NCBI GenBank assembly: GCA_045805265.1
Contig: JBJMLO010000028.1
Coordinates: 447-64,446, forward strand
From: Actinomycetota bacterium
GTDB taxonomy: Bacteria; Actinomycetota; UBA4738; JACQTL01
Length of the DNA: 64,000 bases
Direction: 5' to 3'
Both the position numbers and the translations under genes were made by a program. Below the pieces are notes generated by a model. The model was not told where the DNA came from. It worked only from the letters and a program-made list of their open reading frames with translations, and did no database searches. Positions 55,785-56,015 of the stretch are shown in pieces (position 1 is the stretch's first letter; every line of letters starts with the position of its first letter).

Positions 55785-55824
55785 GGGAAAGCAGATGGCC
55801 CCGGGGTCTCCCGAACCCGGGGCC
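55785..55824 (-). terminator. candidate trp attenuator stem-loop plus U-containing tract
   Basis: Minus strand GGCCCCGGGttcgggagaCCCCGGGGCC then AUCUGCUUUCCC. Confidence 0.35.
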
Positions 55825-55844
55825 ACGCGGCGACTGGTCTGGCG

Positions 55845-55913
55845 TCAGACGCGCGGCGGCGCCGGGCTCGTCGAGCCCGAGGACCAGCGCCAGGTGCCGT
55901 GCATGCCACGCAT
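55845..55913 (-). CDS. candidate trp leader peptide (MRGMHGTWRWSSGSTSPAPPRV)
   Basis: 22 codons with two Trp codons (TWRW) close to a putative leaderless TSS; followed 20 nt later by GGCCCCGGG…CCCGGGGCC hairpin and a U-containing tract, 45 nt before trpE. Confidence 0.4.
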   Translation of the reverse strand: MRGMHGTWRWSSGSTSPAPPRV

Positions 55914-56015
55914 CGTTCGGGGGATTGTCCTTCCCCGTCCCCGGTCCGTCAATCGCACGAAACGGCCGCCCGCGGCGTGCCGCCCGCGCCGGCCGCCTGC
56001 CAAAGTGACCGGGCG

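Follow-up and report, generated by a model that had tools for sequence, protein, structure and literature searches.

The trp locus described here lies in a window of 64,000 nt (the whole stretch of DNA that was analysed; G+C content 72%), where trpE and trpG are read from the minus strand and diverge from pheA, whose ATG lies at 56016 and whose domains are PDT and ACT. Downstream of pheA follow, in order, hisC (a hisC-like aminotransferase), hisB, hisH, hisA, hisF and hisI, and the gene calls made in the first-pass annotation, trpE on one side and a divergent pheA-his group on the other, are correct by Pfam domains. Because the GTG start of trpG overlaps the trpE stop codon as GTGA, we treat trpE and trpG as one two-gene operon. 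The trpE/pheA intergenic region measures 276 nt, and 63 nt separate the pheA ATG from the -35 hexamer of the leader promoter. On the other flank, an ECF sigma gene converges on trpEG, and next to it is a 225-aa ORF without a Pfam match that is possibly an anti-sigma factor. The genes and the elements of the trpE leader are as follows, all on the minus strand:

53653..54237, minus strand: trpG, glutamine amidotransferase component II (Pfam GATase, 7.2e-53)
54234..55739, minus strand: trpE, anthranilate synthase component I, the gene proposed to be regulated, with its ATG at 55739 (Pfam Chorismate_bind, 6.9e-94; Anth_synt_I_N, 1.7e-23)
55754..55748, minus strand: trpE Shine-Dalgarno sequence GAGGAGG, 8 nt 5' of the ATG, read directly from the sequence
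55796..55785, minus strand: U-enriched, non-canonical tail AUCUGCUUUCCC (U fraction 0.45 against a background of 0.14)
55824..55797, minus strand: predicted terminator hairpin (3:4), GGCCCCGGG, a 10-nt loop and CCCGGGGCC (folding energy -27.1 kcal/mol; consensus pairing across leaders)
55892..55884, minus strand: Trp codons UGG-CGC-UGG, leader codons 8-10, proposed stall sites (conservation in aligned leaders)
55913..55845, minus strand: leader ORF (trpL-like), 22 codons and a stop, encoding MRGMHGTWRWSSGSTSPAPPRV (translation; counterparts in 18 loci)
55929..55924, minus strand: predicted -10 hexamer GACAAT, 17-nt spacer from the -35 (promoter scan; A at position 2 and T at position 6 invariant in the alignment)
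55952..55947, minus strand: predicted -35 hexamer TTGACG of the leader (trpL) promoter (promoter scan; TTGAC in 19 of 19 aligned leaders)

The promoter-like element TTGACG-17-GACAAT to which the first-pass annotation had drawn attention lies exactly where it was placed; 55600-56200 contains no second sigma-70-like site, and 50 dinucleotide-preserving shuffles contain none. Its -10 hexamer, GACAAT, is without the usual first T. The leader ATG is found 10 nt past the -10 and has no Shine-Dalgarno sequence; with transcription predicted to start at ~55917-55918, ~4 nt 5' of the leader AUG, the leader mRNA would be effectively leaderless. The ORF itself, already recognised by its TGG CGC TGG, extends for 22 codons from the ATG at 55913 to a TGA at 55847-55845, with the individual UGG codons at 55892-55890 (codon 8) and 55886-55884 (codon 10) of the minus strand. 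By chance, W-x-W or WW is found in 3.7% of random 15-35-codon ORFs from the same window.

Exactly 20 nt separate the leader stop from the hairpin 5' arm, and the perfect 9-bp GC stem that had been described at this distance is confirmed, with arms GGCCCCGGG at 55824-55816 and CCCGGGGCC at 55805-55797. Hairpin, tail and the trpE ribosome-binding site GAGGAGG had been given as an uninterrupted series: all three elements are present in that order, but the ribosome-binding site sits 30 nt beyond the tail AUCUGCUUUCCC, not directly after it. A scan for canonical terminators gave no match at the leader, the tail AUCUGCUUUCCC failing it, and the efficiency of intrinsic termination at this site is therefore uncertain. 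Across the leader family, the 11 nt past the stem contain on average 48% U against a background of 15% (~3-fold), and true U-tracts are seen in lower-GC relatives (L003, L008, L018, L019, L021, L028). For the hairpin pattern, 0.24 occurrences are expected in the window and a single one is found, which rules out a dispersed repeat, and a REP-like origin of the hairpin was rejected for this reason.

Relatives were collected by a TrpE-based scan with one genome per species, the close ones all being metagenome-assembled genomes; they comprise uncultured Actinomycetes/Actinomycetota, whose TrpE is 64-85% identical, and Candidatus Dormiibacterota (Dormibacterota), at ~60%. An exact-match search with the TrpE of the window gave no entry, and its PheA matched only metagenomic contigs, all short and from three sequencing runs. 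The module is found upstream of trpE in 14 actinomycete loci (L001-L004, L006-L009, L011, L013, L015-L017 and L020) and in four Dormibacterota-type loci (L018, L019, L021 and L028), and is missing in four close relatives (L005, L010, L012 and L022). More distant genomes show an arrangement of their own, with trpE directly preceded by hisI. What the leaders share begins with the promoter, composed of TTGAC, a 17-18-nt spacer and a -10 of the form nAnnnT, followed 6-10 nt on by a start codon, and ends with a hairpin GCCCCGG...CCGGGGC that begins 116-138 nt past the -35. Between the two, all 18 other loci have a short ORF with W-x-W or WWW (UGG-NNN-UGG or UGG-UGG-UGG), the first W being mostly codon 8. 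Loss of the W codons from orthologous leaders had been named beforehand as an observation that would count against an attenuator; in the 19-sequence alignment, the second UGG is invariant (19/19) and the first is kept in all but two leaders. The remaining invariant columns are TTGAC, the -10 A and T, and the hairpin core, and the end of the peptide (P17 and the R-V/A ahead of the stop) and a spacer motif CGCGYCUGA are conserved among the related leaders as well. The attenuator reading of the first-pass annotation is supported by more than the codons it singled out, as the promoter, the start-to-UGG spacing and the hairpin are also conserved in orthologous leaders. Singly, the Trp motif of the ORF and the hairpin pattern are unremarkable; taken with their conservation in 18 other genomes, they go far beyond chance.

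A covariance model of 131 positions (R1), built from 15 actinomycete leaders only, matches the 64-kb window once, at 55785-55913 on the minus strand with 90 bits, and recognises the Dormibacterota leaders, which lie outside its training set, at 30-42 bits, or 30-48 bits with their second copies counted in. On the alignment made with the model (A4), which is free of reverse-strand partial matches to the palindromic hairpin, 91.8% of the cells of the terminator helix are paired and double changes occur in 5 of 11 pairs, with all slid control helices scoring far below. RNAalifold on a plain MAFFT alignment returns the terminator only (8 pairs, none broken, two compensatory). No RNA element is better conserved among the related leaders than the GC hairpin; since the cores of terminator and antiterminator are almost invariant in sequence, the support from covariation rests on few pairs. 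As for known RNA families, a search of Rfam at E <= 10 over 55400-56400 gave nothing relevant, its one match being a chance match to mir-540, and a scan of the whole window at gathering thresholds gave only a SAM riboswitch elsewhere and no RF00513 Trp_leader. The T-box covariance model has no match in 55400-56400 even at E <= 10, and the 129-nt leader, with two GAG and zero UAG triplets, contains no TRAP-type array of (G/U)AG triplets (about 9-11, spaced by 2-3 nt).

For a classical attenuator, the leader RNA should be able to adopt mutually exclusive pairings, and the elements involved, again on the minus strand, are these:

55879..55873, minus strand: segment 1, CGGGCUC (nt 35-41), 5-11 nt past the second UGG, where a ribosome stalled at that codon would cover it
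55869..55858, minus strand: segment 2, GAGCCCGGCGCC (nt 45-56), with segment 1 or the terminator 5' arm as its partner (folding)
55870..55812, minus strand: extended antiterminator helix (2:3), nt 44-102 (-39.0 kcal/mol with segment 1 masked and the terminator 3' arm absent)

In the free leader, segment 2 pairs with CGGGCUC and GGCGC to form hairpin 1:2 (-22.0 kcal/mol), the outer 5' strand of which is the GGCGC inside UGG-CGC-UGG. In 20 of 20 leaders, the region with which segment 2 pairs falls between -8 and +13 nt around the second UGG, a stretch that a ribosome stalled at this codon would cover. The z-scores of hairpin 1:2 are modest (mean -1.1), and 72.9% of its cells are paired on the covariance-model alignment; its register shifts between sequences, GGCGC being drawn from either W8-R9 or W10-R11 depending on the leader, and column-wise covariation is weak for this reason.

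The antiterminator was examined by masking a ribosome at the second UGG (the A-site codon plus 10 nt) and cutting the RNA before the terminator 3' arm. Under these conditions, 18 of 20 leaders form a helix between segment 2 and the 5' arm of the terminator. The helix of the window has a z-score of -3.25, with 1 of 200 dinucleotide-preserving shuffles of the intervening sequence folding as well, and z-scores are negative in all 20 leaders (mean -1.9). The folding into terminator and antiterminator alternatives that the first-pass annotation had proposed as a check thus gives both. The antiterminator pairing has further support from L002, which swaps GAGCCCGG/CCGGGUUC for CGGCCCGG/CCGGGCCG and in this way replaces both partners. 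A pair of leaders, those of L004 and L007, has an ORF that ends at codon 15, in the 1:2 loop, and keeps GAGCCCGG outside the ORF, from which it follows that the 'SPAPPRV' end of the peptide reflects RNA pairing; both loci thereby speak against a function of the peptide as the reason for its conserved C-terminus, a reading that we set aside.

Energetically, the free RNA of the window prefers the combination of 1:2 and 3:4 (-72.7 kcal/mol) to the antiterminated fold (-68.3 kcal/mol). When the ribosome is masked on the full-length RNA, the two states come near in energy and the terminator is mostly still favoured thermodynamically, so the switch must be kinetic, as in E. coli. Folded in one piece, the 191-nt region gains no significant stability over shuffles (z = -1.73), and its minimum-energy structure does not show the hairpin cleanly; it is for this reason that segment-wise and masked folds were needed. 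A small hairpin that could hide the trpE Shine-Dalgarno sequence (GCCUC-ACGAG-GAGGC) was also considered and was dropped, as it is not conserved in L001.

Taken together, these results lead us to read the trpE-trpG leader as a classical ribosome-mediated transcription attenuator, to which we assign a probability of roughly 85%. In this model, transcription would begin a few bases 5' of the leader AUG, and a ribosome would translate the 22-codon leader as RNA polymerase advances. With charged tRNA-Trp in short supply, the ribosome is expected to stall at the UGG of codon 8 or 10 and to cover segment 1; segment 2, GAGCCCGGCGCC, thus freed, would pair with the emerging 5' arm of the terminator in a long antiterminator helix, which would block the terminator and let the polymerase continue into trpE-trpG. 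When tryptophan is plentiful, the ribosome would reach the UGA (nt 67-69) and cover the middle of the antiterminator, while behind it segment 1 may re-pair with segment 2. The GC hairpin could then form, and transcription would end at ~55785-55797, about 60 nt before trpE. The response of trpEG to tryptophan is a prediction from the arrangement of these elements.

This model is weakest at the U-tract, which is poor in this genome, and one rival concerns its output. The same leader-peptide sensor might act through Rho or NusG, with the position of the ribosome setting the access of the factor to C-rich untranslated RNA after the leader stop, or hairpin-assisted pausing, and with a hairpin that is not an autonomous terminator. 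Such an output would fit the poor U-tract and the negative scan for canonical terminators, as well as the stretch at ~55755-55790, past the hairpin, which is C-rich and G-poor; it would also have company among the leader peptides of Actinobacteria without obvious terminators, such as the cys leaders of Mycobacterium, for which a Rho-dependent mechanism has been proposed (PMC1262725). Against it, the GC hairpin is the RNA element that the related leaders conserve best and its pairing is kept via compensatory changes, U-enriched tails are found throughout these leaders and become true U-tracts in the lower-GC members, and the C-rich tract is not kept in relatives such as L002. We therefore regard a factor-dependent output as distinctly unlikely here. 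An additional role in trans, which the 22-residue peptide or the leader RNA left after termination would play beside cis attenuation, has a precedent in rnTrpL/peTrpL of S. meliloti, where other trp genes are under the control of the trp attenuator RNA once it is liberated (PMC6614838), and the conservation of the peptide C-terminus and of CGCGYCUGA beyond the obvious needs of a Trp sensor could be taken in its favour. The conserved codons, however, coincide with segment 2 and the antiterminator helix, and the retention of the same nucleotides outside the ORF in L004 and L007 points to a cis constraint from RNA structure, which leaves a trans role in this genome a very improbable addition.

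The rival that would do away with the sensor altogether holds that a spurious short ORF happens to lie beside an ordinary hairpin and that trpE is regulated by a protein repressor, a T-box or a TRAP-like RNA-binding protein. ORFs and stems are abundant in high-GC DNA, and neither a Trp motif at the 3.7% rate of random short ORFs nor a hairpin pattern expected 0.24 times per window is rare enough by itself to dismiss such a coincidence. It does not account for the ORF, the Trp codons, the promoter and the hairpin recurring at fixed spacing in 18 other genomes, a conservation of the module that excludes chance, and the proposed regulators find no counterpart in the T-box and other Rfam searches at E <= 10 or in a TRAP-type repeat array, so that we consider this reading scarcely credible. 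Ribosome-mediated attenuation with termination at the GC hairpin is thus the reading that we place beside the known trp leaders below.

The attenuator of S. venezuelae trpEG was reportedly described by Lin et al. 1998, and the leader of the Corynebacterium glutamicum trp operon is said to have been treated by Heery and Dunican 1993 and by Seliverstov et al. 2005. Comparative genomics has revealed classical trp attenuators in every Corynebacterium and Streptomyces genome examined, with UGG codons in double or triple repeats, GC-rich terminators and conserved complementary triples (PMC1262725). Those of C. glutamicum and S. venezuelae have experimental support according to works cited in PMC4833913, which in C. 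glutamicum extends to the dependence on tryptophan. In S. lividans, TrpL1 (MFAHSTRNWWWTAHPAAH) is encoded by a leaderless transcript upstream of a monocistronic trpE (PMC8079986). The Streptomyces trpL-trpE arrangement resembles the present one in being actinobacterial and in standing before trpE/trpEG rather than a full trp operon (PMC8079986, PMC1262725), and the two further share a short ORF without a 5' UTR (from the predicted start, in our case), clustered UGG codons, at least two hairpins in competition, and a terminator that is rich in GC and accompanied by a U-enriched stretch. They differ in that the W-R-W found here takes the place of the WWW run of TrpL1 (MFAHSTRNWWWTAHPAAH, S. lividans/S. 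coelicolor), in the length of the peptide (22 residues against 18, with no evident similarity when the peptides are compared by eye), in the conserved complementary motif, which is GCCCGG / CCGGG / CCCGGGG here and a gGCC-rGCy-GGCC triple in Streptomyces and Corynebacterium, and in the U-tract, which is poor in this genome. The C. glutamicum trp leader has in common with ours ribosome-mediated attenuation, a leader peptide with Trp codons and a GC-rich terminator; it precedes a whole trp operon, whereas our leader precedes a trpEG that is divergent from pheA-his, and its sequence is different.

With E. coli trpL (RF00513), the leader shares the four-segment logic of 1:2, 2:3 and 3:4, Trp codons in or beside segment 1, and a kinetic competition set by the position of the ribosome. 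Unlike E. coli trpL, it has no Rfam match, its start is of a leaderless type instead of being led by a Shine-Dalgarno sequence, its Trp codons are non-adjacent, and its U-tract is poor; moreover, the stop codon is located 15 nt past segment 2, whereas in E. coli it falls between segments 1 and 2. Sinorhizobium meliloti trpL/rnTrpL offers a parallel in gene organisation, with an attenuator only before trpE(G) and the other trp genes elsewhere (PMC6614838). Its leader differs from ours in phylum and in sequence, and in that the RNA it releases has a demonstrated role in trans.

The mechanism is already established for the trpL leaders of Corynebacterium and Streptomyces, and its understanding is unchanged by the present case. 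What the analysis adds is a tryptophan-sensing leader, predicted and well supported, for a lineage known only from metagenomes, extending the classical attenuation design to uncultured Actinomycetes and Dormibacterota in a form that dispenses with a Shine-Dalgarno sequence and has an interrupted W-x-W. For annotation, the gain before trpEG is a small ORF, a promoter and a terminator. The leader is a possible seed of an uncatalogued RNA family within a long-known kind of regulation, and its alignment can seed a covariance model of a family that Rfam lacks; it is also a candidate for a compact natural Trp-responsive part for use in high-GC hosts.

The Dormibacterota genomes invite a broader and, taken as a whole, unlikely proposal, which we state as speculation. 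The module might represent an attenuator RNA family without an Rfam entry, belonging to the uncultured actinomycete lineage and Dormibacterota, that moved between phyla together with trpE and was duplicated back-to-back in Dormibacterota to serve trpE and trpD-trpC, and whose leader RNA of ~120 nt, conserved and abundantly terminated, or 22-residue peptide might, in addition to attenuation in cis, reach other trp genes in trans after the manner of rnTrpL in Sinorhizobium. Two of these loci carry a second, divergent copy of the leader that R1 detects, at 2512-2643 on the minus strand of L018 (48 bits) and at 2565-2695 on the minus strand of L021 (35 bits), and both extra copies precede trpD-trpC. 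The second copy of L018 encodes MTSGSLYSWRWYRPPEGSVPSRA, followed by a stop codon, and has a U-tract terminator upstream of trpD and trpC.

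The trp leader found on the minus strand upstream of trpE-trpG, which comprises a promoter, a short ORF with two Trp codons and a hairpin, is not retained throughout its own lineage. In four related loci (L005, L010, L012 and L022), whose TrpE is 65-69% identical to that of the window, trpE is preceded by neither the promoter nor the leader ORF nor the hairpin, but by another kind of short 5' region, whose -10 is of the TAGGGT/TACCCT type; the attenuator is therefore lost or replaced within this lineage.

Short ORFs with runs of Trp codons also precede trpE in unrelated phyla, at loci L045, L070, L051, L058, L067, L077 and L079. 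Among the encoded peptides, for example, ...YRWWWS occurs both in L045 (an unclassified Actinomycetota) and in L070 (Candidatus Solincola), while a Kiritimatiellota genome encodes ...DWWWRR, a Desulfofervidaceae genome encodes ...RGWWWLL, and NWAW or NWVW occurs in L077 (Thioalkalivibrio) and L079 (an unclassified Pseudomonadota). The covariance model R1, built from 15 actinomycete trp leaders, detects none of these seven ORFs, save for a chance-level match to L070 (15 bits, E = 0.74). The seven ORFs likely represent independent trp leader peptides.

Two Dormibacterota-type loci, L018 and L021, carry a second copy of the leader family, back-to-back with the trpE leader:

L018:2512-2643, minus strand, second trp-leader-family copy
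L021:2565-2695, minus strand, second trp-leader-family copy

The L018 copy encodes the leader peptide MTSGSLYSWRWYRPPEGSVPSRA, followed by a stop codon, and has a terminator with a U-tract; in the gene order read for this locus, trpD and trpC lie downstream. Given this back-to-back arrangement and the position of the L018 copy upstream of trpD and trpC, a single leader family appears to control two divergent trp transcription units.

Several features in the window surround the leader or lie further away:

31290-31383, minus strand, 94-nt tRNA-Gly (gcc) called by ARAGORN
50448-50550, plus strand, SAM riboswitch (Rfam RF00162)
52421-53616, plus strand, ECF-type sigma factor (Sigma70_r2 and r4_2 domains), then a 225-aa ORF
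54234-54237, minus strand, GTGA overlap of trpE stop and trpG start
55755-55790, minus strand, C-rich, G-poor stretch CCCGGGCCACCCACCCAGCCACCGGCGCC
55953-56018, plus strand, pheA 5' region, with the ATG at 56016

The C-rich stretch, which separates the trpE RBS from the tail of the terminator, resembles a Rho-utilisation site and is not conserved in the actinomycete locus L002. The GTGA overlap suggests translational coupling of both anthranilate synthase subunits. On the divergent side, no Shine-Dalgarno sequence precedes the pheA ATG, and a -10-like CAAAGT (GAGAGT at the equivalent position in the actinomycete locus L001) ends 8 nt before it; the pheA-his operon may therefore also be leaderless, with a predicted promoter within the 63 nt adjoining the trp leader -35. 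No -35 match was found in the pheA 5' region.

The ECF sigma factor gene and the 225-aa ORF behind it run convergently towards the 3' end of trpG; the ORF, which has no Pfam match, possibly encodes the anti-sigma factor of the adjoining sigma factor. The SAM riboswitch scores 95.2 bits (gathering score 44.4) and overlaps with the start of the longest ORF for the PLP-dependent gene just downstream (PALP, threonine-synthase-like, ending at 51874); the actual start of this gene must lie downstream of the aptamer. Given its unusual length and its overlap with an ORF of high GC3 (31275-31982, minus strand), the tRNA-Gly may be a false positive.
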